The notes beneath the pieces were generated by a model. The model saw only the letters and a list, made by a program, of their open reading frames with translations. It was not told where the DNA came from and made no database searches. From Patescibacteria group bacterium (GTDB taxonomy: Bacteria; Patescibacteriota; Dojkabacteria; J137): DNA of 64,000 bases. Shown piece by piece: positions 8,136-62,355 of the stretch. Every line of letters begins with the position of its first letter. Within the stretch, counting starts at the first letter, position 1. Position numbers and translations under genes: made by a program. The stretch spans positions 459,569 to 523,568 of the forward strand of contig BOLA01000001.1 in assembly GCA_016861265.1 (NCBI GenBank), read 5' to 3'.

Positions 8136-10367
8136 TTAATCAGTATTGATTTTATCCCAAGGGACTTCATTAACTAGATTAATAATAAAGTCTAGGCTTT
8201 TATTGTAGTTATCTACACTTATAATTCCATCTCTATAGGTAATTACCTTATCCCTATCCAGAATAAATTCCACTTTATATTCCTGTCCTTCGTGGTTAAT
8301 AATTACTGTATTCTTCTCTCCCCATGACTTACCTGGATGTTTTTGTATCAATAACTTATAGCTTCCAGTTGCGTTATAGTTAAGATTATCAGGTAAGTTA
8401 TAACTTACGTTCAGTTGCGATTCGGGAATAGGCGCTTCTGCGGAACCCCTTCGAGAATCAAATTGAATAATATTATCACTTACATACTTTTGCATTTGGG
8501 CATCTTGATATTCATCGGGGTAATAATAAAGGTAGCCCGAGTTATTATATCCATCGGAAACTACGTTAGTTGAACCAGTAGGCATAAAGTATCTTACCCA
8601 TGCTCGATAGGTAAATCTCCCACTCATATCATATTGATCCAAGTACGAATCCTGATATATTTCCGGTTGAACCCAGTGAGTGTATACGCTCTTAGAAATA
8701 TTGCCGTTGTCATCTATATTTACTGTTTGTGTTACGTCGTTTCTTAACCATCGATTAATTTTTAACGCGCAATTCTGAGCCTCGCTTAATTGAAAATAGT
8801 CACCTTCAAAAGTTTTTGCAGTCTCTCCGCTAAAGCCATATTTTTCTAAATATGCTTCTAAAGATGAGTCATTTGGAGCATAAATACCTATATCTTTAGC
8901 TTGTATAGACCCTACCATTGCATTAATTAGCCTTGCTAAGTCGGCAATCTTAAATTCAAATAACTTCTTTTTTGCAGCATTAGCAATGTCCTTAATAATA
9001 GATTTTCGTTCCTTACTTCCTCTATTCTCTACACTATCTGTTTGGGATTTTATTAAATCGTACAATTTGTCGGATGTTACCGTACCGAAACCTTCAACTT
9101 CAAGAGGATCTAATAAGTCTATTAAAGTTTCCGCAAAGTGGTTGTTTATAATTAGTACGTAATTGTAACTAGGAAAATCTGCAGGAGAATAGTAATTAGC
9201 AACATTATAATAATCAGCAAGCATTTGCATTGTGAGTTTAAGATCAGGGTAAATTCCTGCATCCTGCGCTCTCAAATAGTAAGCACCGCAACCTCTTTCC
9301 ATTAATACCAACTGACCGTAGATATTCCTATAACCCACATCAACACCTAAATCGTAAGATACATGAGTTTCTAAATTCCACATGTCTTCAAGATTTATAT
9401 CACCGATTTCACCATTACTCATTGTTAATGTTCCAAAGGCGCTTAACAACCCTCCCGAAGCTCTCATTTCAGTTTCATTTTGAAGAATTACTAAGTAAGT
9501 TGCAGGATCATTTGAACCTATAATTTCTGGCATATGACTTAAAAAATCCATTGTTTGTTTGGATATACTTGGGAATTTAGTAGAAAAATCATCCACTTCC
9601 TTAATTATTTCTGCATAATTAGTTCCGCCGATTTGTGGTACATAGTTAGGATCAATCTTTTTTACCTCGTTAAAGATGTCAATTACCTGAGGTTCAATCT
9701 TACTGTATAAGGCTAAATACTGAGGCAGCTCCTTCATTACTAAAGAAAACGCACTGTCTTCCTTTTTTTCTCCAGTTTCAGGGTCTAGCACTATGACTGT
9801 ATTAGGATCACTCTTCTCGGTTTTAAAACCCGTTATTTTTAGTAGATTCTTTAAGTCAGGTAAAGTTGAATCTAATAAATTAGAAGTCTTATCCAGAACG
9901 GTTCGCATTACTTGAAAATTATCGTAGTAGCCCTTGGTATATTCAAGATTCTCAAGAAATTCAAATCTATCAATTTCTGAATTTACATTATTTAAGTCTG
10001 TTTTTATATTGGCAAAATAAGTATCAATCTTACTTAAATCCTTATTGTCAAAATCAGCTAATAAAGAGGATGCATTGACTTGAATATCATCAACAGATTT
10101 CTTTATTCTGGTGTAAGGCATGTAAACATAGTTATATGCTAAAACTCCCAGGATTGCAGTTAGTACAAAAAGTATACTCAAAACGATCAATAATTTTCTA
10201 CCCCTCTTCCTCTTTGGTTTTGTTTCCGATTTAAAAGAAACGTATTTTGTTTTTGAATCCAGCGAAGATAGTTCATTACCTAAATTAGGACTGAACGAGT
10301 TAGTTAGAGTGGGATTAACTGTAGTTTCCTCTATTTTTTTATTTTTGGTGAATTTAAAAGTTTTCAT
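8136..10367 (-). CDS. Large membrane-anchored extracytoplasmic protein (possibly DUF4012-like)
   Basis: 743 aa with a basic N-terminus, a single TM helix (LLIVLSILFVLTAILGVLAY) and an ILQNETEMRASGGLLSAFG motif reminiscent of DUF4012 envelope proteins. Confidence 0.4.
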   Translation of the reverse strand: MKTFKFTKNKKIEETTVNPTLTNSFSPNLGNELSSLDSKTKYVSFKSETKPKRKRGRKLLIVLSILFVLTAILGVLAYNYVYMPYTRIKKSVDDIQVNASSLLADFDNKDLSKIDTYFANIKTDLNNVNSEIDRFEFLENLEYTKGYYDNFQVMRTVLDKTSNLLDSTLPDLKNLLKITGFKTEKSDPNTVIVLDPETGEKKEDSAFSLVMKELPQYLALYSKIEPQVIDIFNEVKKIDPNYVPQIGGTNYAEIIKEVDDFSTKFPSISKQTMDFLSHMPEIIGSNDPATYLVILQNETEMRASGGLLSAFGTLTMSNGEIGDINLEDMWNLETHVSYDLGVDVGYRNIYGQLVLMERGCGAYYLRAQDAGIYPDLKLTMQMLADYYNVANYYSPADFPSYNYVLIINNHFAETLIDLLDPLEVEGFGTVTSDKLYDLIKSQTDSVENRGSKERKSIIKDIANAAKKKLFEFKIADLARLINAMVGSIQAKDIGIYAPNDSSLEAYLEKYGFSGETAKTFEGDYFQLSEAQNCALKINRWLRNDVTQTVNIDDNGNISKSVYTHWVQPEIYQDSYLDQYDMSGRFTYRAWVRYFMPTGSTNVVSDGYNNSGYLYYYPDEYQDAQMQKYVSDNIIQFDSRRGSAEAPIPESQLNVSYNLPDNLNYNATGSYKLLIQKHPGKSWGEKNTVIINHEGQEYKVEFILDRDKVITYRDGIISVDNYNKSLDFIINLVNEVPWDKINTD

Positions 10368-10470
10368 GTCTGCAATAGTATATCAAAAGAAAAAGTAAAA
10401 GTTTTTATATAGCTTTAAATTGATACTTAATTAAAGCAACTGTATACTTACTAATATTAGTAATAATTAA

Positions 10471-12540
10471 ATGGACCAACCAAAAGAACCAAAAAAAATT
10501 CCCTTAGCTGGGGAAGTACCTGAAACAAAACTTCCACCAGTAGAGCCTGTCAATACTGCTGCTCCGACTGTAATTGATCTTAGTGAACCCAAAGATTATT
10601 CACACTTACCTATTGGTACACAAGCTAGCATTGAACTAGATAAGAAATCTATGCTTCCTGCGAAACCTGTTCCTCAAGATAATGGAACTAATAATATAGT
10701 ACCTAAAAGTGTACTAAAAAATGACTTCAGTAAAAAGTTTTTTAAGATTGGCTTAGGAATATTAGGAGCCTTTCTTGTTTGTTTTGTAGTTTTTCTAATT
10801 TTGTCCATAACCAACATTGACGCTAAATTCGTAAAGATCAATCTTAACGGAGAAATAACAGATGCAAATACGGGTAAGCCAGTTGAAAATGCAGCTATTT
10901 TTATTGGTGACAACGAGGTTGCAAAAACAAATCCGCAAGGTAGATATTCAGTAGATAATCTTGAGATAGGTGACGTACAGGTAACTGTAAAGGCAGACGG
11001 CTACGACGATACAACTGAAACAGTTAGAATAACTAAAGTTCTTTTGGACTACTCTACAAGAAAAGACTTTGCACTTAAATCCTCTATTACAGGGATATTA
11101 TCTGGGAAATTTATTCCAAATAGTTCTGACTATAAATTTACAAACGATAGATTACTCATTGGTGATAAACAGTATAAGATAAATGACGACGGCTCTTTTT
11201 TAATTAATGATATAAAGGTGGGCAAGCTGGACTTTAAATTCAACTCTATAAATTTTAAAGACATTACTCAAAGTATTGACCTTCAAGCGGGTACGAATAA
11301 AATTCCGGATATAACTTTGGTTCCAGGTGGTGACATTGTGGGTGAACTAAAAAGTTATGTAAAAGAGGATTTGGTTTTGAATACAAAATTTTATGTAGAG
11401 AATATTCTACAAGACCAAGTAAATATTACCGAGGATGGTAAATTTGCAGTAAAGGACTTAGACACTGAAAAGAAATACAAGATTAGAGTAACTGCAGATG
11501 GATATAAGACCAGGGATTACGAGATTAATATTCGACAAGGAGAAAACCAATTATTCAACTTCAAATTAGTAGAAAATGGTTCTGCAATTTATCCAATAAG
11601 AGATGGTACTAGTAGTTTTGACCCTATAAAACTCTACAGCTCAGATTTTGATGGTGAAAATAGGAAGCTAATTGCTGATGATACTGCAATAGATTTGTAT
11701 ACAAAATTTTTTAGCATTGAGGAGCAGAATTTATACTATCAGTCATTTAAAGATAGTACATTCCACCAAGCAAGTAATGGTAATACGCTAAAAATGCCTT
11801 ATAAGGTGGATATTGTAAACCCAACTCCTGACAGAATGACAATAAATACAAGCAATTTGAATCAACTAACAGCGAACTTTATTGCAAAGAAAATGCTAAA
11901 TCTTTACGTTAAGCAAGGTGCCATAAACCAACCAGGGCTACAAGTTATGGATATTGATGGCAATAATAGAAAGGATGTAAAACTCTTAACCAACACAAGT
12001 TTTAAATTTGAGAACTTAAGGATATCAAATAATGGAAAGTTTGTACTTTATAGTTATCAAAATAATAATCAGACTGAACTCTATTTGTATAATATTGAAT
12101 CGGAACAGACAAAGAATATTCTAACTAGTCAGAATATAACAGTTTACGATATATCAGAAGACGGGAACCTTGTGCTAATTAGCAGAAAGAATCCAAATAC
12201 AGATTTAATTGACCTGGCTATTGTGAATGTAGCATCAGATGATCTTAGAACTCTAAAAGAAAATATAAAAGGGTTAGGCTACCAATTTGTTAAGAATGAT
12301 ACTAACAAGATTATTTTCTTTGAAACAAGAGAGTCCAGATCAAATATTTATACATTTACCGTTGATAGAAGTCAGGAAGAAAAGATTTCCAGTCTAACGC
12401 CAGACTACACAATATACGGAATCTATCAGGAATCGAATTTGCTATTTTATCAAACTAATAGGGGTTTGTTGGTTTTAGATTTAAATAAGCCTAAAAACTT
12501 TAAGCTTGTGTCATCCGATGCCCATAATTACTTTAGATAA
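10471..12540 (+). CDS. Membrane-anchored protein with carboxypeptidase-regulatory-like domains and a TolB-like beta-propeller C-terminus
   Basis: Pro-rich N-terminus, one TM helix and repeated CarboxypepD_reg-like segments (GRYSVDNLEIGDVQVTVKADGYDD; DGKFAVKDLDTEKKYKIRVTADGYKT). The C-terminus has propeller-like repeats (NNGKFVLYSYQNNNQTELYLYN). Confidence 0.45.
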   Translation: MDQPKEPKKIPLAGEVPETKLPPVEPVNTAAPTVIDLSEPKDYSHLPIGTQASIELDKKSMLPAKPVPQDNGTNNIVPKSVLKNDFSKKFFKIGLGILGAFLVCFVVFLILSITNIDAKFVKINLNGEITDANTGKPVENAAIFIGDNEVAKTNPQGRYSVDNLEIGDVQVTVKADGYDDTTETVRITKVLLDYSTRKDFALKSSITGILSGKFIPNSSDYKFTNDRLLIGDKQYKINDDGSFLINDIKVGKLDFKFNSINFKDITQSIDLQAGTNKIPDITLVPGGDIVGELKSYVKEDLVLNTKFYVENILQDQVNITEDGKFAVKDLDTEKKYKIRVTADGYKTRDYEINIRQGENQLFNFKLVENGSAIYPIRDGTSSFDPIKLYSSDFDGENRKLIADDTAIDLYTKFFSIEEQNLYYQSFKDSTFHQASNGNTLKMPYKVDIVNPTPDRMTINTSNLNQLTANFIAKKMLNLYVKQGAINQPGLQVMDIDGNNRKDVKLLTNTSFKFENLRISNNGKFVLYSYQNNNQTELYLYNIESEQTKNILTSQNITVYDISEDGNLVLISRKNPNTDLIDLAIVNVASDDLRTLKENIKGLGYQFVKNDTNKIIFFETRESRSNIYTFTVDRSQEEKISSLTPDYTIYGIYQESNLLFYQTNRGLLVLDLNKPKNFKLVSSDAHNYFR

Positions 12541-12577
12541 TACATTACCTATTGCAATGGTATAATCTCGTTTAATT

Positions 12578-13756
12578 ATGAACAGTATAAAGGATCTATT
12601 TCCAATATTTAAAAATATTCCGGACTTAATATTTTTAGACAATGCCTCAACAACTCAGAAACCTACCTTAGTATTAGATAAATTGACTGAGGTTTACACC
12701 CAATACAACTCCAATGTTCATAGAGGGCTATATCCTATTGCTGTTCGGGCCGATGAAGAATACGACAGAGCAAGAGAAAAAATTGCAAAATTTATAAACG
12801 CAGATAAAGACGAAATAGTCTTTACTTCGGGCACTACCGACGCTACAAATTTAATTGCTCAGTCATTGTTAAATAGTCAGATAATAAGTAACAATGCGAA
12901 TATTTTAACCACTGAACTTGAACATCATTCAAATTTTTTACCGTGGCAGAGAGTTTCAGGGAATAATTTAGAATTCGCAACTTTCAAAGAGAATCAATTG
13001 AATTTCGATGAAAACAAGAAATTTGATATTGTTGCCTACTCTATTATTAGTAATGTGACCGGTAAATTTACAGATATTAAGGATTTAAGAAAAAACAATT
13101 TAAAAGATGCAATTTTTATTGCGGATGCAGCACAGGCGATTGCACATATGCCAATTAATGTAAAAGAAATGGACATAGATTTTCTGGTATTTTCAGGACA
13201 CAAAATGTTTGGTCCAACAGGCGTCGGAATAATGTATGCAAAGCGAACCTTTCTAGAAAAAATGCAACCTTTCAAGGTTGGTGGAGGTATTGTAGACAAA
13301 GTATCAAGGGAGTCAACCTCCTGGACTCAATCTCCAGAAAAGTTTGAGGCTGGCACCCCACCAATTGCTGAAGCAATTGCTCTGGGTTCAGCTGTAGATT
13401 TTATCAACGAGATGGGATTTAATAAAATTTCACAGATTGAAAATGAACTTAAGGCCTACGCATTGCAAGAACTTTCTGGATTAGAAAAAATAAAGATATA
13501 CCACTCAGAAAATATACATTCCGGTGCGGTAATTAGTTTTACCCTTAAAGGAATTCACCCACACGATATTGCTCAATTTTTAGGAGATAAAAATATATGC
13601 GTTAGGGCAGGTCATCACTGCACGCAAATACTACATCGTGAGGTTTTTGAAATTCCTGCCTCGGTGCGTATATCTATGAGTATATATAATTCAAAGGAGG
13701 AAATTGATTCTTTAGTTTCAACCTTGAACGAATGCATTGCGTTCTACAGAATTTAA
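12578..13756 (+). CDS. sufS: Cysteine desulfurase (class V aminotransferase, SufS/CsdA type)
   Basis: FLDNASTTQKP N-terminus, the PLP-lysine region SGHKMFGPTGVGIMYAK and the active-site Cys loop RAGHHC. Confidence 0.85.
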   Translation: MNSIKDLFPIFKNIPDLIFLDNASTTQKPTLVLDKLTEVYTQYNSNVHRGLYPIAVRADEEYDRAREKIAKFINADKDEIVFTSGTTDATNLIAQSLLNSQIISNNANILTTELEHHSNFLPWQRVSGNNLEFATFKENQLNFDENKKFDIVAYSIISNVTGKFTDIKDLRKNNLKDAIFIADAAQAIAHMPINVKEMDIDFLVFSGHKMFGPTGVGIMYAKRTFLEKMQPFKVGGGIVDKVSRESTSWTQSPEKFEAGTPPIAEAIALGSAVDFINEMGFNKISQIENELKAYALQELSGLEKIKIYHSENIHSGAVISFTLKGIHPHDIAQFLGDKNICVRAGHHCTQILHREVFEIPASVRISMSIYNSKEEIDSLVSTLNECIAFYRI

Positions 13757-14637
13757 CTAGGGGTTAGTAATAACTTATTATTGCTGCCGATTCCATTGTC
13801 TAACGCCTGCTCTTGATAACCTTGCTTACTAACAATCATCTTTTTCTTCAGATATCTTCTCGAAACCCTAAACTGTCCATTTTTATCTGTAATAATATAT
13901 TTAGAATTATCTGAAAGTAGAATAATCGTACCTGCAAGGGGCTGATGGGTCTTAGAATTTTCCACAGTAATCCTCTTTGTAAGTAATAATTTACTTATTA
14001 GCAATAATATTGCCAATAAAAGTACTAAAACTAAAACAGTAAAAAGAACAATAGTTTCTATAGACATTGGCGTTTCCGACGAATCTTTTACCGGTAAAAC
14101 AATATTGTTAATTTGATTAGGCGTTAACGAGCATTCATAATTTGATGTTTGAATTGGCAAATTGTGTACACTTGTTAGAAGATCTAAACTTGTTGTTAGT
14201 TCAGCAATATTGCTATCGTATGTATTGTCTAAACCATCGAATTGTATTTGAAATACAGGATTCTTAGTATGTGCGACAAAGGGTATCTTAGCAAAAAGAT
14301 ACCTTCCATTTATAGAATCGAACCTAACGGCGGTAATTTTAATTTGATTTCCTTCGACCCTGTTATATACATATGACTCATAAGCATTTCCGGGTATTAT
14401 CTGAACGCCATCGACTAAAGGATCGGCGTCTAAAATAGTCACTTCTGTTAAATTGTATTTAATTATTAGATCGGCAGAATTAGAGTATTTGCCTTCGGTA
14501 TCTATAAAAATATCTAGTGTGTAAGAACAATCATCATCATTTAAACTGACAATATTATCTTGAATATAAGAGGCAGCATGAATTTTAACCATAGGGGCGA
14601 TTAAAACAAAAACTAATACCAGTAATAACCTATTCAT
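13753..14637 (-). CDS. Membrane protein with an N-terminal cohesin-like domain and a C-terminal CarboxypepD_reg-like segment
   Basis: Signal peptide, then a cohesin-like motif (DLIIKYNLTEVTILDADP), an internal TM helix (IVLFTVLVLVLLLAILLLI) and a C-terminal TDKNGQFRV motif. Its start overlaps the upstream gene by 4 bp, so they form an operon. Confidence 0.35.
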   Translation of the reverse strand: MNRLLLVLVFVLIAPMVKIHAASYIQDNIVSLNDDDCSYTLDIFIDTEGKYSNSADLIIKYNLTEVTILDADPLVDGVQIIPGNAYESYVYNRVEGNQIKITAVRFDSINGRYLFAKIPFVAHTKNPVFQIQFDGLDNTYDSNIAELTTSLDLLTSVHNLPIQTSNYECSLTPNQINNIVLPVKDSSETPMSIETIVLFTVLVLVLLLAILLLISKLLLTKRITVENSKTHQPLAGTIILLSDNSKYIITDKNGQFRVSRRYLKKKMIVSKQGYQEQALDNGIGSNNKLLLTPS

Positions 14638-15230
14638 AGATTCAAATCCCCACGCTTATGTAAATTATATATTTGATTACTCAAATCTAAGGAGTTTACT
14701 ATGCCATCCTTATTAAAATCGTATCTGGGTTCATTCGTATAGAGTCTGTTTATTACTTTGTTTACATCAAGTCCATTAATATAATTATGATTTATTGCAT
14801 CACCTGCGAGTAAGTATTCATTTTCATTTCTTGCAAGATTGAATTCAGTTGAATAGTTAAAAAAACCTTGAACATTTGAAAACAATTTGCCTAAATGACT
14901 TGCACTTTTTATATAAATTGAATAAATTCCTGGTGTTGTAGAAATTTCTCTAGAACACAAATCTATAGATGAGTAACCATTATTATTTGTCTCAAGATTA
15001 TCTATTCGAAAAATCTCTTGATATAACTGGTCATAAAATACAACCAAATATTTATCTGCAAAATTACCTTCTCTAGGCATTCTCTTCTCCGGTTTAATAA
15101 TCAAGGAAGCAGTACAGCTACTAACACTAGCACTAATGCTAATTTCTCCCTGAGATTGTGCATTAAGGGTGCTAAATGGAAGTAATAGTGAAGCTAAAAT
15201 TAGAATTGAAATCTTTTGAGTTAAATTCAT
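14634..15230 (-). CDS. Secreted protein with a C-terminal dockerin-like duplicated Ca-binding segment
   Basis: Signal peptide (LILASLLLPFSTLNAQS). The C-terminus carries two dockerin-like segments (DAINHNYINGLDVNKVINRL and DFNKDGIVNSLDLSNQIYNL) that fit the DxNxDGxVNxxD F-hand pattern. Confidence 0.4.
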   Translation of the reverse strand: MNLTQKISILILASLLLPFSTLNAQSQGEISISASVSSCTASLIIKPEKRMPREGNFADKYLVVFYDQLYQEIFRIDNLETNNNGYSSIDLCSREISTTPGIYSIYIKSASHLGKLFSNVQGFFNYSTEFNLARNENEYLLAGDAINHNYINGLDVNKVINRLYTNEPRYDFNKDGIVNSLDLSNQIYNLHKRGDLNL

Positions 15231-15232
15231 TT

Positions 15233-16534
15233 TTAGAACTCACTCAAGTGCCAGTAACCAGTCTTTAAACCTGAGCAATCTCTATTCTGACATAAAATTA
15301 TGTATTGTGCTCCATATCCATCATCCCAGAATTTATGCACATAGCCATCGTGAGCTGCAAATATTGGTGCATTCCAAGGTGATCCTATAATATCAATTCC
15401 CGTATGAAAATCGCAGTAGTTCGAATCTCCCCACCAGAAGCATCTGTTTCCAAAACCACTTGTAAAGGTAATGTTCCCTTGCAAAGGTGCATCAAGATAG
15501 CCTCCTCCACAACCATCTACAATACCATCTTTCAAATATCCACATGGGTTCTGTAATTGGTTGTTTATGTATACCATAAAGTGCAAATGTGCACCTGTAC
15601 ATAACCCCGTACAACCTTGTTTACCCATATATGTTCCAGCTACCACATATTGACCATCGTCGGCGGGAACATAGCTGTTAAAGATCTGCTGTTGCACAAG
15701 ACTTGCCTGTGCTTCAAGCTTGGCTTGATCATCATTAAATTGGAACAATCTTGATTGATTACTATTGTTCTGCGCTTGAAGAGCATTTAATTCTTTCTGA
15801 TACGCAGTAATTCTCACATCTGCTTCTTCTCTCTTTTTTGCTAAGTCAGTCTTTTTGACATCAACAATTTCCTTACTCTTATTAACTTCTATCAATTTAT
15901 TGTTTAGCTCTAACTTTTTGTCTTGAAGTTGTTGTTTTAATTCCGCAAGCTCAACCATAACGTCGTTAGTATCCGATTGAATTAGCTCCTTATATTGAGA
16001 TGTTTTAAAGAAAGTATTTATATTCGTTAGATTGAAAACTGTACTAGCATCGTCAGTTGACCTATAAAGTCTAAAATTAAAGTAGTTATCTCTAATTCTT
16101 TCTGCCGATTCTTCTTCCAGACCAGTTATGGTATTTTCTGTCTTTGTAATGTCGGCTTTTTGTTTGTCTATATCTTTATTAAGACTTGCTATTTGAAGTT
16201 CAAGTTGCTTTATTTCTAGGTCTAACTCTTCAATTTGTTTATTGTATAAATCTGCCTCTCCATATAGTCTTGAGAGTTCGGAGCTATAACCATTTATGAC
16301 ATATGCATTTTGGTCTAATTGTGATTGAAGACCCTCTTTCTCTCTCTTAACTTCATCAATCTGCCTATTAATATCATCCAATTGTTCTTGCAATGACTGA
16401 CCCACGCTTACTCCTGGTGCTACATATTGAATTCTTATATTATTCAGAAATGGTACCGAGGTATTGGCAATTACTAATAGAGCTAAGTTAAAGACAACGA
16501 AAGTTATTGTTACTATGTTTTTTAGTTTTTTCAT
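15233..16534 (-). CDS. Coiled-coil (EnvC-like) M23/LytM-family peptidase with a circularly permuted catalytic domain
   Basis: N-terminal TM helix, about 250 aa of coiled coil, then GTYMGKQGCTGLCTGAHLHFMVY...NP, which normally forms the C-terminal half of M23. This is followed by ITFTSGFGNR...HTGIDII...AAHDGYV...GYGAQYIIL...GYWHLSEF, which normally forms the N-terminal half. Confidence 0.7.
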   Translation of the reverse strand: MKKLKNIVTITFVVFNLALLVIANTSVPFLNNIRIQYVAPGVSVGQSLQEQLDDINRQIDEVKREKEGLQSQLDQNAYVINGYSSELSRLYGEADLYNKQIEELDLEIKQLELQIASLNKDIDKQKADITKTENTITGLEEESAERIRDNYFNFRLYRSTDDASTVFNLTNINTFFKTSQYKELIQSDTNDVMVELAELKQQLQDKKLELNNKLIEVNKSKEIVDVKKTDLAKKREEADVRITAYQKELNALQAQNNSNQSRLFQFNDDQAKLEAQASLVQQQIFNSYVPADDGQYVVAGTYMGKQGCTGLCTGAHLHFMVYINNQLQNPCGYLKDGIVDGCGGGYLDAPLQGNITFTSGFGNRCFWWGDSNYCDFHTGIDIIGSPWNAPIFAAHDGYVHKFWDDGYGAQYIILCQNRDCSGLKTGYWHLSEF

Positions 16535-16543
16535 TCTCTACTA

Positions 16544-16897
16544 TTGTATAGTCAATTAAATATTTTGTCCAAAATTACAAATAATCCGATTGACGAAGAT
16601 ACCCTATGGGGGTATTATATTTTTATGGAGAAGATAGATTGTAAAAAAGTCAGTGAAGAGACTACAAAAAATTTAAACCGTGTAAAAGGACAAATCCATG
16701 GAATTGAGAAAATGATTTCAGAGAACCGAGACTCAATAGAGATTGTCACGCAAATTCAGGCAGTTAGAGCTGCCCTCTCTTCCATTGCAATAAACATGTT
16801 AAAGGAAGACTGCAACGAATGTTTTAATAAAAAATCAGAAGCAGATAAAAAGAAACAGTTCGAGGATTTGGTAGTGAAATTTTTTAAAATAAGTTAG
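16544..16897 (+). CDS. CsoR/RcnR/FrmR-family metal- or stress-sensing transcriptional repressor
   Basis: LNRVKGQIHGIEKMISENRDSIEIVTQIQAVRAALSSIAINMLKEDCNECF matches the DUF156 helix bundle. The true start may be the internal Met (MEKIDC). Confidence 0.65.
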   Translation: MYSQLNILSKITNNPIDEDTLWGYYIFMEKIDCKKVSEETTKNLNRVKGQIHGIEKMISENRDSIEIVTQIQAVRAALSSIAINMLKEDCNECFNKKSEADKKKQFEDLVVKFFKIS

Positions 16898-18264: not shown

Positions 18265-18290
18265 AAAAAAGCCCTTCGGGGCTTTTTTTA
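18263..18290. terminator. Bidirectional rho-independent terminator between trxB and infB
   Basis: AAAAAAAA-GCCC-TTCG-GGGC-TTTTTTT: a GC stem with a TTCG tetraloop, flanked by an A-tract and a T-tract between convergent genes. Confidence 0.75.
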
Positions 18291-19880
18291 AAATGCTGAT
18301 TCTAGTTTAAACGCTACTATTTCATCACCCGGTTCAACTTGTTCAATCTTGTTGTCTATTAATATTCCGCAATCTAAACCTTTTTTAACTTCCTTTACTT
18401 CATCCTTTCTAATTCTTAACGAAGTAATCTTTCCTCTTCCTAATTCATAAATATCGTCTTTAACCTGTCTTAGTATTTTTACTCTGTAACCTCTTAACAT
18501 TAAACCTTTAACTACTTCACTTCCATAAACAGCTGAGCCATCGGAAAGTGTGAATACTTGTTTTACTTTCGCCTTTGCGATTTCAACTTCTTCCTCAACT
18601 GGTGCTCCCAAGCTATTTAATACATCTGTTACTTCATCAAACATTTCGTAAATTACTTCGTAGTTTCTTACCAAGACTTTCTCGTTCCGAGCTTGAGTTG
18701 CAATTTTTGAAGGCGTTGGCAATTGAAATGTTACCACAATAGCATGTGCCAACTTTGCTCTAGTAATTTCATCTTCGGTTACATTTCCAGTCCCTGATGC
18801 AAGAATGTTAATTTCAGCCTCTTCAGTTTTAATCCCCTTCAAATGAGACAAAATAGCTTCAAGAGTTCCTTCTGTAGAAGCCTTTACTATTACATTTAGC
18901 TTTTTTACATCCAAACCTTGCTTGACCTCTTCTCTTCCGATTAACATTTTGGCGAACATAGTCTCTGCAGCAGACATACCCTCTACTTCCTCAGTCTTTT
19001 CTTCTTGAGCGATCTCTTTTACTGCTAATTCCTTTGCTAATAATCTAGCCTTATCTTCATTCTCTACAAAGTATAAAGTTTCTCCCGCAGGTAATGTGGT
19101 TCTTAGTCCGGTAATCCAGAACGGCTGTGATTCCATAACCTTGTCAATAGGTTTTTGAGTGTGATCAAGGTAACTTCTTACCTTAAAAATCCCTTCTTTG
19201 GAAACACCATAGATTCTACTATTAAGATTTCCAGATTTTAGAATACATAAGGCAACATTACCAATTTGCTTATCTAAGGAAGATTCTAGAATAAATGCCT
19301 CTGCATTCGTACCTTCTTTAGGCATTACAGACTTTAATTCATGAACCTCAGATAGTAGCTGAATGCCTTCAAGTAATTCATCTAGTCCTGTTCTTTCTTT
19401 CGCAGATATCTCAAAGAATAGCGTATCTCCGCCATATTCTTCTGCTACAACTCCATAACTTGATAATTCAGTCTTAATCTTTTGAAGATTAATGCCTTTA
19501 ATATCAACTTTATTAATAGCTACAATAATTGGGACATTATCTCTTTTTGCGAATTCAATTGACTGTTTAGTTTGCGGCTGCACACCATCATCTGCGGCAA
19601 CAATTAATAGTACAAAGTCGGTAACCTGTGCACCTCTAGATCTCATACTACTGAATGCTTCGTGTCCAGGCGTGTCAATAAAAGTGATTCTAAAACCACT
19701 TTTTGTAACGACCTCGTGGGCCCTTGTATTCTGGGTAATACCTCCTGCTTCCTTATCTGCAACTCTAGTTCCTCTAATTGCATCTAGAAAACTGGTCTTG
19801 CCGTGGTCGACATGCCCCATTACAGCGACTATAGGTGTTCTTACGGAATTTTGTATAACTTTTTCAACTTTGTTTGGCAT
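18288..19880 (-). CDS. infB: Translation initiation factor IF-2 (short form lacking N-terminal domains)
   Basis: G-domain (GHVDHGKTS, DTPGHEAF, NKVD) and conserved IF-2 C-terminal domains. Only 530 aa. Confidence 0.9.
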   Translation of the reverse strand: MPNKVEKVIQNSVRTPIVAVMGHVDHGKTSFLDAIRGTRVADKEAGGITQNTRAHEVVTKSGFRITFIDTPGHEAFSSMRSRGAQVTDFVLLIVAADDGVQPQTKQSIEFAKRDNVPIIVAINKVDIKGINLQKIKTELSSYGVVAEEYGGDTLFFEISAKERTGLDELLEGIQLLSEVHELKSVMPKEGTNAEAFILESSLDKQIGNVALCILKSGNLNSRIYGVSKEGIFKVRSYLDHTQKPIDKVMESQPFWITGLRTTLPAGETLYFVENEDKARLLAKELAVKEIAQEEKTEEVEGMSAAETMFAKMLIGREEVKQGLDVKKLNVIVKASTEGTLEAILSHLKGIKTEEAEINILASGTGNVTEDEITRAKLAHAIVVTFQLPTPSKIATQARNEKVLVRNYEVIYEMFDEVTDVLNSLGAPVEEEVEIAKAKVKQVFTLSDGSAVYGSEVVKGLMLRGYRVKILRQVKDDIYELGRGKITSLRIRKDEVKEVKKGLDCGILIDNKIEQVEPGDEIVAFKLESAF

Positions 19881-19975: not shown

Positions 19976-21382
19976 ATGTTCAAATTTGAAAAACTAAAGG
20001 ATACTAAACTTTCTTTTATTCTACCTATACTCAGTCTGTGCGTTATTGGAGGAATTACTGTCTTTTCAACAACTTACGACAACGGGGTATCGGGTATGTT
20101 CACTAATCACCTGGCGTTCTATTTGGTTGGATTTGTGCTTTTCCTTACTATATCCACAATTAATCCTGCCAAGTTAAAGCTAAAGATAGTAAATCTTTTA
20201 ATTGTAGCCTTCTCTATAGCTTCTTTAGTGGCTGTAATATTCCTAGGTACCGAAATATATGGAGCACAAAGATGGATAGACCTAGGGTTCTTCAGTTTTC
20301 AACCTTCGGAGTTTGTAAAAGTAAGCATTATACTATTCACAGCTTTTTGTTTAGGGGTGAGGACAAAAAGAGAAACTGAGGAAATCTTTAATATTTATTT
20401 ATTAAAGGAAAGCAGCTGGGTTCAGATAAGAAGGATGTTAACGTCTGAGGAATTTATTAAATCTGCAATGGCAATTTTATTTTACCTTGTAAGTGTGGTG
20501 CTCATTATAAAACAAAAGTCTTTAGGGAACTCTATTTTACTTACTTTAATATTCTTATCAATACTCTTAATAAATCTAAATATTAGTCCTGCTGCACTAT
20601 TATTTATTGTTCCGCTAGTAGTTGGGATATTAATCAGTTTTAACACTATAGACTTAGGGAATCTTTCTAATTTATTTGGATTTAACTTTTATCTTTTAGT
20701 AAGTATAGTAATAATAATCTTAATTTATTATCTAGGTAAAAGACTTAAATTAAATACTATTATTATGTACTTCTTTTTTGGGGTGGGACTTTTAGCGCAG
20801 CCTGCTATAAGCTTCTCATATAATCAAGTACTTGAACCTTATCAAAGACAAAGAATTGAATCGTTTTTGGGTGCAGAAGATGATGTAAATTTATTCCAAA
20901 ACGAAGATTTTAATAGGCAAATGTCTATTCTAGCAGTCGGCTCTGGAAGAGTTTTTGGCAAGGGACTACTGAAAGGTAATATTGTGAATTCTAGACTGCT
21001 CCCCTTTGCTTTTACAGACTTTGCTTTTGCTGGTTTTGCTGAACAATTTGGATTTGTCGGTGGATTATTGATTATAAGCCTTTATATTATTCTCTTAATT
21101 AAAATCTTTAAAATATTTCTTAAAACTAACGATAACTTCTACAGGTTTATTTGCATTGGAGTGATTTCCTTAATATTTTTTAACTGTGCACAACATATTG
21201 CTATGAATATGGGCATTACGCCAATTACTGGGGTTCCTTTGCCTTTGATTAGCTATGGTGGAAGTTCAATACTATCTATATTTATAGGCTTGGGGATAGT
21301 TAATGCTATTGATATTTTTGGAGACCAAGATGTGCAAATAGAAAGTCTTAAGGCTGATTACGGTTTTAACAATAGAACTTAA
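19976..21382 (+). CDS. ftsW: SEDS-family peptidoglycan glycosyltransferase (FtsW/RodA)
   Basis: Polytopic membrane protein with the SEDS signature (PFAFTDFAFAGFAEQFGFVGG). Confidence 0.8.
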   Translation: MFKFEKLKDTKLSFILPILSLCVIGGITVFSTTYDNGVSGMFTNHLAFYLVGFVLFLTISTINPAKLKLKIVNLLIVAFSIASLVAVIFLGTEIYGAQRWIDLGFFSFQPSEFVKVSIILFTAFCLGVRTKRETEEIFNIYLLKESSWVQIRRMLTSEEFIKSAMAILFYLVSVVLIIKQKSLGNSILLTLIFLSILLINLNISPAALLFIVPLVVGILISFNTIDLGNLSNLFGFNFYLLVSIVIIILIYYLGKRLKLNTIIMYFFFGVGLLAQPAISFSYNQVLEPYQRQRIESFLGAEDDVNLFQNEDFNRQMSILAVGSGRVFGKGLLKGNIVNSRLLPFAFTDFAFAGFAEQFGFVGGLLIISLYIILLIKIFKIFLKTNDNFYRFICIGVISLIFFNCAQHIAMNMGITPITGVPLPLISYGGSSILSIFIGLGIVNAIDIFGDQDVQIESLKADYGFNNRT

Positions 21383-59924: not shown

Positions 59925-60077
59925 ATTGTTACCTCCTTTCCGTGTATTTAGTTAAGTTTAGGGTTAATAATTTCATCAGTCAACATGTTTTATAATCGTG
60001 AGCACAATTACATTTTGCCACCACAAATTGATATCTCCGTGATATAATATTTACGTGCTAACCAAAGGAGGTAACGC

Positions 60078-60389
60078 ATGAGACGTTTTGTTGATGCTTT
60101 GGTACTTGGGACGATCATTGCAATGGCAGGGATTGAATACCTCGCGTGGAGGACAAGCATAGAGTTAGGTCTGTACCTGCTCTTGTGCTACTCTGCAGTC
60201 TGGGCTGCGATTGTAATCGCAATTCGGGCAAGCGTGAGGGGAGATCTACTACGCCAAAAGGTGAGAGAGTTCCGGGAACAGGGCAGAGAGTACCACAGGT
60301 TTAGCCGGAAGATATGGCTGATTGCCCTTCTTCCGGGGATACTAGTGTTACTCGCGTTAGCCGTGAGGCTGCTTCAAACTCTTAGGTGA
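60078..60389 (+). CDS. Hypothetical small Arg-rich membrane protein encoded in a GC-rich island
   Basis: 103 aa with three TM helices. Strong Shine-Dalgarno sequence (aaggaggtaacgcATG). About 50% GC against a one-third background, and it uses Arg rather than the Lys favoured by neighbouring genes. Confidence 0.45.
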   Translation: MRRFVDALVLGTIIAMAGIEYLAWRTSIELGLYLLLCYSAVWAAIVIAIRASVRGDLLRQKVREFREQGREYHRFSRKIWLIALLPGILVLLALAVRLLQTLR

Positions 60390-60437
60390 TGCACATCACC
60401 CATGGTGCCGGAGGTGACTTCGGCACCCTTGGGGGGA

Positions 60438-60836
60438 CTAAGACTTAATCTTTTTTATAATTTCTTCAGCCTCCTCCTTTTTTAGTTCTGTTTTACTCCT
60501 AGGGTTAAAGTTTTCTGCTTCCTGCATATTACGCATAGGGTAGAGCTTGGCGTGTAAGTGATTTATTTCTAGTCCTTCAAACATTAAAATAGTACGCATT
60601 GTATTAAGTTTTTCATCTAACATTAACGCTATTTTTCGAACGTATTCCCAGTACCTATTCATAAACTCCTGACCATGGCTAAAAACATATGAGTCTTTTT
60701 GAACTTTCGGAATAACTAATGTTTGAGCATAACTAGATGGATAAGAGTCTAGAAAGGCCATAAAATCATCTTCTTCATCAAGAATGTATGCAGGAATTTC
60801 CCTTTGCGCAATTTTTTCGAAAATTGTTTTTTCCAT
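60438..60836 (-). CDS. HIT-family hydrolase
   Basis: IFEKIAQREIPAYILDEEDDFMAFLD...TLVIPK and a histidine-triad-like INHLHAKLYP. Confidence 0.65.
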   Translation of the reverse strand: MEKTIFEKIAQREIPAYILDEEDDFMAFLDSYPSSYAQTLVIPKVQKDSYVFSHGQEFMNRYWEYVRKIALMLDEKLNTMRTILMFEGLEINHLHAKLYPMRNMQEAENFNPRSKTELKKEEAEEIIKKIKS

Positions 60837-60921
60837 AAAAAGATTTGATTAAAAATGGTATACGATATTTAAAATGAATTTAAATACTGATTAATATTAT
60901 AATACACTTTAAATTTATATT

Positions 60922-61293
60922 ATGAGTAAATCAATCCAGGAGATCACCCACCAGATAGTCGAATTTGCCGAAGCAAGGGGCTGGAAAAACGAGAACCCTT
61001 CCCACTTACTAAATGCTATTTTTATTGAGATGGCTGAACTGGGAGAACACTATCAGTGGAAGAATGACTTTAATAAATTTAAGGATATGTCAGAAGAAGA
61101 TAGGACCTCTTTAGGCTTTGAATTTGTAGATGTAATATTTTACTTATTTAGATTGGCTCATAATAGTGGAATAGATATAGAAGAATACTTTGACAAGAAA
61201 CTCCCAAAATTAAACGAAAAGTTCAAAATTGGCACTGACTACGGTAAGGCCCACAAAGATTATAGGGCAACTGGGAAAAATAAACTATATTAA
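60922..61293 (+). CDS. MazG-like nucleotide pyrophosphohydrolase (small single-domain)
   Basis: EMAELGE...EFVDVIFYLFRLA fits the EExxE/D MazG helices, 123 aa. Confidence 0.6.
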   Translation: MSKSIQEITHQIVEFAEARGWKNENPSHLLNAIFIEMAELGEHYQWKNDFNKFKDMSEEDRTSLGFEFVDVIFYLFRLAHNSGIDIEEYFDKKLPKLNEKFKIGTDYGKAHKDYRATGKNKLY

Positions 61294-61299
61294 GGGGGT

Positions 61300-61335
61300 G
61301 GGGTGAAGAGCTGTCGGCATTTCGTACTTCACCCC
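61300..61335. terminator. Hairpin between the MazG-like gene and the GC-rich gene
   Basis: GGGGTGAAG-(18 nt)-CTTCACCCC with a U-rich tract on the minus-strand side. Confidence 0.45.
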
Positions 61336-61340
61336 GTTTG

Positions 61341-61748
61341 TTACATTAGATTGAGCGGCATTATTCCGTCTACTTCCAAGACGATCTTAGGCCCCAAAGG
61401 TTCCTCTGGGTTCACCTCAAGTCCCTTGGTCCAGAAACGGACTAAGCCAAAGTAGATCAGAACAAAGTTCTCTGCTATCCAGAAGTTTCTGAATACAACA
61501 TCTGAATTTGAAGCCAGAGTTACCTTTGTTCCTTTGACACCCTCAATGTTCAGAGGGGTCGTGTCCTCAGGTGCAAAGCCAGTCAGTTTATACCTATGAC
61601 CTCCCATCTGAGGAGTGCCTTCAATCAACCTGAAGATTGTCCTCTGTTTGCCCACAAAGACAAGATAGAACCCCTCGCCCTCGTGGATCAGCTCAATCCC
61701 TTTGATTGTATCGAGCATACACACTCCATCGCCGACAGCTGGTGACAA
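61341..61748 (-). CDS. Hypothetical protein in a second GC-rich island
   Basis: 135 aa, no recognised family, about 47% GC with atypical codon usage. Confidence 0.4.
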   Translation of the reverse strand: MSPAVGDGVCMLDTIKGIELIHEGEGFYLVFVGKQRTIFRLIEGTPQMGGHRYKLTGFAPEDTTPLNIEGVKGTKVTLASNSDVVFRNFWIAENFVLIYFGLVRFWTKGLEVNPEEPLGPKIVLEVDGIMPLNLM

Positions 61749-61818
61749 TTATAACAGCTAAATGCCATAATCTTAAATTATAAGATTATGTATAATAAGA
61801 GTAGTTAAATAAATTTAT

Positions 61819-62355
61819 ATGGAATTAGAAACAGCAACTTTTGCAGCAGGATGCTTTTGGTGTGTAGAGGCTATATTTGAGAGGGTTAAGGGAGTTTCGG
61901 AGGTGGTATCGGGTTATTCAGGGGGATTCATGGAAAACCCAACTTATGAACAGGTATCTAGTGGCAAGACGGGACACGCGGAAGTAACTCAAATAAAATT
62001 CAATCCCGACATTGTATCTTACAAAGACCTTGTTAATATTTTTTTTCTGACTCACGATCCAACAACCTTAAATAGACAAGGTAATGATGTAGGAACTCAA
62101 TATAGATCTGCAATTTTCTATCATTCTTTGGAACAAAAGAGAGCAGCAGAGGAAGCGAAGAAGGAAATTGAAGACAAAAAAATATATCAAGATCCGATAG
62201 TCACGACTATCGAAGAATTTAAAAGATTCTACTCAGCGGAAGACTATCATCAGGACTTTTATAATAATAATCAAGATTATCCTTATTGTAAAATTGTTAT
62301 TGACCCAAAGGTAGCTAAGTTTAGGAAAGAATTTATTGATAAAGTTAGTGAATAA
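61819..62355 (+). CDS. msrA: Peptide-methionine (S)-S-oxide reductase MsrA
   Basis: [19 protein letters not shown] active site and a conserved MsrA C-terminal region. Confidence 0.9.

Follow-up and report, generated by a model that had tools for sequence, protein, structure and literature searches.

M23/LytM peptidases, including lysostaphin, LytM, EnvC, NlpD, and ShyA, are among the most studied cell-wall enzymes. An open reading frame (ORF) in a 64,000-nucleotide stretch of a Patescibacteria group bacterium (contig BOLA01000001.1 of assembly GCA_016861265.1; hereafter the window) raises the question of whether such a peptidase domain has been circularly permuted, and what an enzyme of that kind would do. 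The ORF lies at 15233-16534 on the minus strand and encodes 433 amino acids (aa), with the sequence quoted in a preliminary description of the window, which had proposed that a long coiled coil is followed here by a permuted M23 domain. The protein is laid out in three parts, namely an N-terminal hydrophobic helix, a helical hairpin of approximately 240 aa, and a C-terminal M23/LytM domain with its halves swapped (Table 1).

Swapped order of the M23 segments

The ORF matched the Pfam profile PF01551 (Peptidase_M23) in two stretches, with an E-value of 8e-12 and 45.6 bits at a family cutoff of 28.7 bits. The best stretch aligned aa 289-330 to positions 55-96 of the 96 in the profile, which places the C-terminal part of the profile first in the protein. 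These two are the only M23 stretches; aa 1-287 are made up of the anchor and the coiled coil and hold no additional copy of either half-domain. When the protein was compared with the sequences of PDB chains using phmmer, the alignments crossed. For TagE (5j1l), query residues 375-431 aligned to chain residues 63-117 and query residues 291-337 to chain residues 121-167, and the same crossed pattern was seen for 3slu and 6muk. The permuted domain proposed earlier is thus recovered both by the two Pfam stretches in swapped order and by the crossed alignments.

The protein carries the complete set of HxxxD, HxH, and YxHL motifs expected of an M23 peptidase in addition to the profile match. In the canonical order, HxxxD is followed by YxHL and then by HxH. 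Here, H316-x-H318 precedes H377-xxx-D381, as the preliminary description had it, and H429 (in YWHL) comes last, with the chain ending at F433, four residues past H429. In LytM, zinc is bound by H210, D214, and H293, and the catalytic residues are H260 and H291. By homology, we take H377 and D381 to be two zinc ligands (LytM H210/D214), H316 and H318 to be one catalytic histidine and one zinc ligand (LytM H291/H293), and H429 to be the catalytic histidine equivalent to LytM H260. Because its motifs depart from the canonical order, we assigned the 433-aa protein as a permuted variant homologous to M23 peptidases and EnvC/CwlO-type hydrolases, not as an ordinary M23 member. Overall, the interpretation first given to this ORF was supported.

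Table 1 Features of the permuted M23 gene and its upstream region, in window coordinates.
Feature	Position	Strand	Basis
Whole gene, coiled-coil protein with circularly permuted M23 domain (stop codon 15233-15235)	15233..16534	-	ORF list, Pfam, four orthologues in metagenome-assembled genomes
N-terminal hydrophobic helix, aa 2-24 (signal anchor or signal peptide)	16463..16531	-	AF2 helix; hydrophobic N-terminus throughout alignment A1
Antiparallel helical hairpin, aa 44-286, EnvC/CwlO-type coiled-coil module	15677..16405	-	AF2, Foldseek, HHalign
Hairpin tip, aa 159-200, with family motif K-x3-Y-x3-IQ-x2-TN (KTSQYKELIQSDTNDVMVEL, aa 177-196)	15935..16060	-	A1 consensus; low-pLDDT loop 161-177
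First M23 segment, aa 288-330, canonical C-terminal third (V..G..iG.qG.TG..TG.HLHF...NP), bears HxH	15545..15673	-	Pfam profile 55-96; TagE 121-167
HxH motif, H316-L-H318	15581..15589	-	Invariant in 37 family members
Connector, aa 331-349 (CGYLKDGIVDGCGGGYLDA), old C-terminus to old N-terminus	15488..15544	-	C331/C342 pair nearly invariant
Second M23 segment, aa 350-433, canonical N-terminal two thirds (P.xG.iTS.FG.R ... HxxxD ... DG.V ... YxHL)	15236..15487	-	TagE 63-117, 3slu 205-298, 6jmx 123-200
HxxxD motif, H377-TGI-D381	15392..15406	-	Invariant in family
H429 in YWHL	15248..15250	-	Invariant in family
Promoter-like TGGACA-17-TACAAT just upstream of the start codon	16543..16571	-	Consensus scan, 10/12 matches; weak evidence only

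In silico rearrangement of the domain

We rearranged the query by placing aa 343-433 ahead of aa 288-342. The rearranged sequence matched PF01551 in one stretch covering profile positions 2-96 of 96 with 60.3 bits, compared with 48.9 bits in two stretches for the same residues in native order. Likewise, it aligned to TagE residues 63-167 in one stretch with a gap of 2 residues at the artificial junction (…KTGYWHLSEF joined to YVPADDGQYVVAG…, aligned with TagE …KTYYAHLNKIVVK--TGEFVKKG…), and the TagE E-value changed from 3.8e-6 to 2.8e-11. Furthermore, 25 distinct solved M23 sequences, including lysostaphin, LytM, ShyA, Csd3, and zoocin A, were collinear with the rearranged query. None of the 25 was collinear with the query before de-permutation, and the permuted order had no match among solved M23 sequences.

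Given that a single end-to-end match to the profile and to TagE is obtained after rearrangement, the cut is clean, with no half lost or doubled, and the domain is, at the level of sequence, a clean circular permutation with neither duplicated nor missing parts. The one-stretch match with its 2-residue junction gap also bears out the earlier claim that the protein ends exactly where a canonical domain would continue.

Conservation of the permuted order

As the source of the window is apparently metagenome-derived, the arrangement might be an artefact of assembly, frameshift, or gene calling in one contig. A scan of one genome per species recovered four full-length relatives in independent metagenome-assembled genome (MAG) assemblies. 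Two of these assemblies bear the label Candidatus Dojkabacteria; the other two are labelled Saccharibacteria and Ignavibacteriaceae. The identities of these orthologues are 85, 83, 66, and 51%. All four have the same domain order and stop at …GYWHLSEF or …GYWHLSTF, and the flanking genes for IF2, TrxB, TrxA, and a SufS-like aminotransferase are common to the window and three of the four. The same order and C-terminal end also recur in dozens of diverged clusters, whose sequences come from assemblies of JGI, ENA, NCBI, and Logan. The preliminary description had named orthologues as a check against mis-assembly; with an identical order and end in four independent MAGs and conserved synteny around them, we rejected the assembly artefact, whose probability we put close to nil.

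An exhaustive phmmer search with query aa 285-433 against 1.84 billion (1.84e9) cluster representatives yielded 8118 matches at E<1e-3. Among the best 150 of these matches, 46 have exactly one HxH ahead of one HxxxD according to a strict regular expression, and a few more were recognised by alignment, which brings the permuted share to about 50 of the 150. Nearly all permuted members among the best 150 match the whole query in one stretch that ends at their own C-terminus, and most of them are 395-450 aa long. We then built a family alignment of 37 full-length members with 22-46% identity to the query (A1) and a domain-only alignment (A2). The five M23 catalytic and zinc positions (H316, H318, H377, D381, and H429) are all invariant in the 37 members. 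With its order kept across the family and its catalytic residues unchanged, the permuted domain is conserved and under purifying selection.

The same permuted domain also occurs in a short-form architecture of approximately 330 aa (P0041, P0046, P0047, P0059, and P0145, plus the 401-aa P0024). In this subfamily, the helical part at the N-terminus is shorter, and a WHLxWM tail is conserved. A word-index homologue search with the domain alone gave a single match, a canonical-order M23 protein (P0001), and the A2 profile retrieved from the word-indexed database only proteins shorter than 300 aa, mostly canonical M23 fragments. An exact look-up of the 433-aa protein found no record, and a single-protein scan of viral contigs gave no match to the permuted protein.

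Among the loci compared, L001 (JACSRR010000195.1, labelled Ignavibacteriaceae) and L003 (CAYUKX010000012.1, labelled Saccharibacteria) are syntenic with the window, with 66-92% protein identity for most shared genes, which raises the possibility that these bins carry the wrong label or include a contaminating contig of Dojkabacteria-like origin. The IF2 gene of the window (18288-19880, minus strand) encodes only 530 aa and is without the long N-terminal region of typical bacterial IF2. The short IF2, a GC content of approximately 33%, and the Dojkabacteria orthologues fit a genome of the Patescibacteria/candidate phyla radiation.

The coiled-coil module

The arrangement of an N-terminal anchor and an antiparallel hairpin ahead of a hydrolase domain is that of the EnvC/PcsB/CwlO/RipC class, and some family members are named 'peptidoglycan hydrolase CwlO-like protein' in IMG. 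A Foldseek search of the full-length model against the PDB returned EnvC in FtsEX-EnvC (8tzl_E) as the top match, together with PcsB (4cgk), EnvC (6tpi), and the RipA N-terminal domain; this result is dominated by the coiled coil and is informative only for the resemblance to EnvC and PcsB. As coiled coils match one another readily, homology was tested by profile-profile alignment in HHalign with a reversed control. The N-termini of the 37 permuted members aligned to those of eight canonical-order coiled-coil M23 proteins over 238 columns with a probability of 98.9% (E 2.4e-17, score 122), compared with 73.8% and a score of 42 when the same target was reversed. The alignment pairs the hairpin-tip regions of the permuted and canonical-order proteins. 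Together, the EnvC match and the HHalign result agree with the EnvC-like coiled coil of the preliminary description. On the strength of this N-terminal homology, the module is common to ordinary coiled-coil M23 endopeptidases, and the rearrangement is confined to the catalytic domain. The hairpin tip is a candidate contact site for FtsX.

Predicted structure and cysteine pairs

With the family alignment as input, AlphaFold2 (AF2) modelled the full-length protein as a helix at aa 2-24, two helices at aa 44-158 and 172-286, and a beta domain at aa ~290-433 with a predicted local distance difference test (pLDDT) score of 90-97. The domain alone (aa 282-433) was predicted as all-beta with a mean pLDDT of 93.7 and a predicted template modelling (pTM) score of 0.87. 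Such a confident model is what would be expected of one compact domain, not of two independent half-domains.

The connector that joins the two M23 segments contains C331 and C342, which are conserved at ≥90% in A1 and A2 and presumably form a disulfide. The canonical-order proteins that we inspected end NP..YL and do not have this pair. C415 and C420 are likewise conserved at ≥90% in the domain-only alignment. Eight cysteines of the ORF form four sequence-local pairs (aa 308/312, 331/342, 365/374, and 415/420; window 15273-15613), which suggests a disulfide-stabilised extracytoplasmic domain. Many family members have an extra Cys-rich insert between DGY and GGANY.

Proposed activity and control

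We consider it likely that the protein is an active, membrane-tethered permuted M23 peptidoglycan endopeptidase of the EnvC/CwlO/PcsB class, probably governed by FtsEX. The N-terminal anchor, the antiparallel coiled-coil hairpin, and the C-terminal hydrolase would together make an extracytoplasmic enzyme tethered to the membrane. The chain would enter the fold at the strand preceding HxH and run to the canonical C-terminus (..NP); from there, a short connector stapled by the Cys pair would lead to the canonical N-terminus (P.xG.iTS.FG.R), and the chain would end just past the YxHL histidine. Both segments of one chain presumably come together in cis as a single M23 domain, with the zinc held by H377, D381, and H318 and the active site completed by H316 and H429. 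The enzyme itself would then cleave peptide cross-links of peptidoglycan, which goes beyond the activation of an amidase as performed by E. coli EnvC. Judging from gene linkage in distant members and from the architecture, the coiled coil may place this activity under the control of the FtsEX ABC transporter as the cell divides or its wall grows.

The linkage was found in all four distant long-form members with visible upstream DNA, where ftsE-ftsX lies directly upstream of the permuted gene. For P0008 (locus L006), the order is prfB, a small ORF, ftsE, ftsX, the permuted M23 gene, and a second permuted M23 paralogue. For P0012 (L008 and L009), it is prfB-ftsE-ftsX-permuted M23, with the gene starting on the last base of ftsX in both loci and an FtsW/RodA gene 1.5 kb downstream. 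P0023 (L013) and P0017 (L014) show ftsE-ftsX-permuted M23. P0010 (L012) shares the downstream neighbourhood of L008, on a contig that ends 60 bp upstream of the gene. The two Dojkabacteria-like relatives P0007 (L010) and P0003 (L011) are without ftsEX linkage. In L006, a single metagenomic contig, the tandem coiled-coil paralogues downstream of ftsE-ftsX occupy 10001-11290 and 11342-12643 and encode 429 and 433 aa.

A role in wall synthesis and division is also suggested, less strongly, by a recurring neighbour of the FtsW/RodA/SpoVE family (shape, elongation, division and sporulation, SEDS). In the window, an FtsW/RodA-family gene lies at 19976-21382 on the plus strand, 3.4 kb from the M23 gene. 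SEDS genes within 1.5-4 kb of the permuted M23 gene were observed in the window and in L008 (12780-14156), L012 (3193-4545), and L004 (13339-14613). In the Dojkabacteria-like clade that includes the window, the gene would have left the ftsEX operon and stayed approximately 3.4 kb from the FtsW/RodA gene.

Several observations weigh against the proposal of an active, FtsEX-governed endopeptidase. No ftsE or ftsX was seen in the 64-kb window, and the M23 gene is not beside ftsEX in close relatives, so FtsEX control of the protein of this window is an extrapolation. The short form of approximately 330 aa was not linked to ftsEX in the single locus checked (P0046; L015 6001-6999), where the gene follows an HtrA-like protease. 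Moreover, Foldseek with the domain model against the PDB gave no significant match and no M23 structure (best E=1.0), and against BFVD it gave one unnamed match (E 3.2e-4, TMq 0.59); assembly of the zinc site in the predicted M23 fold is therefore something we infer. Our guess is that the miss on a confident model reflects a sequence-order-dependent aligner meeting a permutant.

The Foldseek outcome against the PDB also speaks for a rival reading, in which the half-domains are unable to close within one chain, so that the active site would form only in trans through a coiled-coil dimer or domain swap and activity would depend on oligomerisation. The permutation puts both chain ends at the active site, and a long coiled coil could in principle pair between chains. 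Nevertheless, the AF2 monomer of the domain is one confident compact unit, the model folds the helices back on each other within one chain in an EnvC-like hairpin, and the conserved 19-residue connector is long enough to bridge the old termini. We give assembly in trans very little credence.

The protein might instead be a catalytically dead LytM-type regulator that activates a separate amidase, like E. coli EnvC or NlpD, both of which are without zinc ligands. Its EnvC-like architecture and the ftsEX linkage of distant members would suit that role. Yet neither HxxxD nor HxH nor the YxHL histidine varies in the 37 members, whose identities are 22-46%, and this constancy implies selection for catalysis; moreover, no amidase gene was seen beside the family loci examined. 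A dead regulator is, in our judgement, quite improbable.

An active permuted M23 hydrolase might also act independently of FtsEX in this lineage, for example as a general autolysin or as a weapon against the host wall in an episymbiont. The gene stands outside any ftsEX operon in the window and in close relatives and is apparently coupled in translation to genes for two small secreted proteins, both here and in L003; Patescibacteria are often epibionts. Against this, the hairpin tip here still has the motif conserved in ftsEX-linked members, an N-terminal anchor speaks for an enzyme bound to the cell, and L001 and L002 have neither of the two downstream genes. We regard independence from FtsEX as unlikely.

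A further proposal concerns the permutation itself. With the domain cut after YxHL and the coiled coil joined to the strand before HxH, both chain ends come to lie at the active site, and the permutation may, speculatively, change how movement of the coiled coil is transmitted to catalysis. It could then amount to a new regulatory design and not to neutral rewiring, with FtsEX-driven movement of the coiled coil opening or closing the catalytic centre or with half-sites assembling in trans. We regard such a design as improbable; if the gating were real, the mechanism would be unlike the occlusion by a 'restraining arm' in EnvC. In any case, a coiled coil that enters the domain beside the active site would provide a natural experiment on FtsEX-type mechanotransmission to a hydrolase.

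Origin of the permutation

Several matches are tandem M23-M23 proteins (e.g., P0025, P0034, P0035, P0044, P0051, and P0075), in which the region aligned to the full permuted query spans the junction of the two domains. In these proteins, 55-80 aa separate the first HxH from the second HxxxD, compared with a median of 59 in the permuted family. The alignment across the junction and the matching spacing fit the classical route of duplication and loss; most likely, the M23 domain of a pre-existing coiled-coil-M23 protein was duplicated in tandem, and the outer halves of the pair were then lost. Short tails past YxHL in some members, e.g., …WHLDWMLGDEIRYKSEPQ in P0024, resemble the start of the lost canonical segment and give only a hint about the origin. 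The family offers a clean case of permutation inside a fixed multidomain architecture, with tandem-M23 proteins as plausible intermediates.

Comparison with known hydrolases and consequences for annotation

The nearest counterparts are canonical-order coiled-coil M23 endopeptidases (P0039, P0048, P0050, P0072, and P0095), which share the anchor or signal, a homologous hairpin, and a C-terminal M23 domain with all catalytic residues in approximately 380-400 aa. Their motifs run HxxxD ... YxHL ... HxH, whereas the permuted family is cut after YxHL and rejoined via the Cys-containing connector. EnvC of E. coli and V. cholerae (PDB 6tpi, 8tzl) resembles the family in overall architecture, in being the best match of the full-length model, and in the ftsEX linkage of distant members; however, the LytM domain of E. 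coli EnvC is of canonical order and catalytically degenerate and serves as an amidase activator, whereas the permuted family keeps every catalytic residue. PcsB of S. pneumoniae, CwlO of B. subtilis, and RipC of M. tuberculosis likewise combine an FtsEX-coupled coiled coil with a C-terminal hydrolase (the FtsEX part being probable in our case), but catalysis in these proteins falls to a cysteine peptidase of the CHAP or NlpC/P60 type and not to an M23 metallopeptidase. The solved domains of LytM, lysostaphin, TagE, and Csd3 are homologous over both segments and have the same five catalytic residues, in canonical chain order.

A natural permutation that swaps the order of catalytic residues in a cell-wall peptidase superfamily is on record for NlpC/P60 families (YaeF/poxvirus G6R and LRAT-like; Anantharaman and Aravind 2003, as cited in PMC6403190), although these have an unrelated fold and chemistry (papain-like cysteine peptidase). 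Our literature search, with a coverage short of all journals, found no description of a permuted M23/LytM domain, and in the passages it returned, the sole mention of 'circularly permuted' beside LytM concerns NlpC/P60. The permuted M23 family, carried by ultra-small bacteria that are for the most part uncultured, thus seems to be undescribed so far.

The precomputed Pfam matches of family members are often 'weak', 'faint', or absent (the short-form P0046 has no Pfam match on record), and they carry names as different as 'hypothetical' and 'predicted nuclease with TOPRIM domain'. Given these matches and names, the enzyme is easily missed: the permutation halves the profile match, and a probable division hydrolase of Patescibacteria-like genomes may be overlooked in annotation. 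The finding overturns no principle, and its practical value lies in annotating division hydrolases in such genomes.

Gene neighbourhood in the window

On one flank of the M23 gene are a divergent gene for a CsoR-type repressor and those for thioredoxin, thioredoxin reductase, and IF2; on the other are two small secreted ORFs and a SufS-like gene. The first secreted ORF (14634-15230, minus strand; 198 aa) lies directly downstream of the M23 gene and has a weak dockerin-like match, and the second (13753-14637, minus strand; 294 aa) has a weak CarboxypepD_reg-like match and a C-terminal hydrophobic stretch. They follow the M23 gene with a 2-bp gap and then a 4-bp overlap, a spacing that suggests translational coupling to it. 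Both ORFs were found here and in L003. Their absence from L001 and L002 led us to reject them as obligatory partners of the peptidase, and they look like a clade-specific insertion.

The repressor (16544-16897, plus strand) is a metal-sensitive protein of the CsoR/RcnR type (PF02583, E 8.7e-19); its gene is transcribed away from that of the zinc peptidase and is kept beside it in L001 and L003. Its mechanically assigned TTG start is probably too far upstream, since tblastn alignments cover only approximately 101 of 117 aa. Promoter-like sites occur on both strands within 16543-16618; such sites are not enriched in the region, with 11 found compared with 15.1 expected. Elsewhere in the window, the local GC content at 60001-62000 is 0.40, compared with a background of approximately 0.33.

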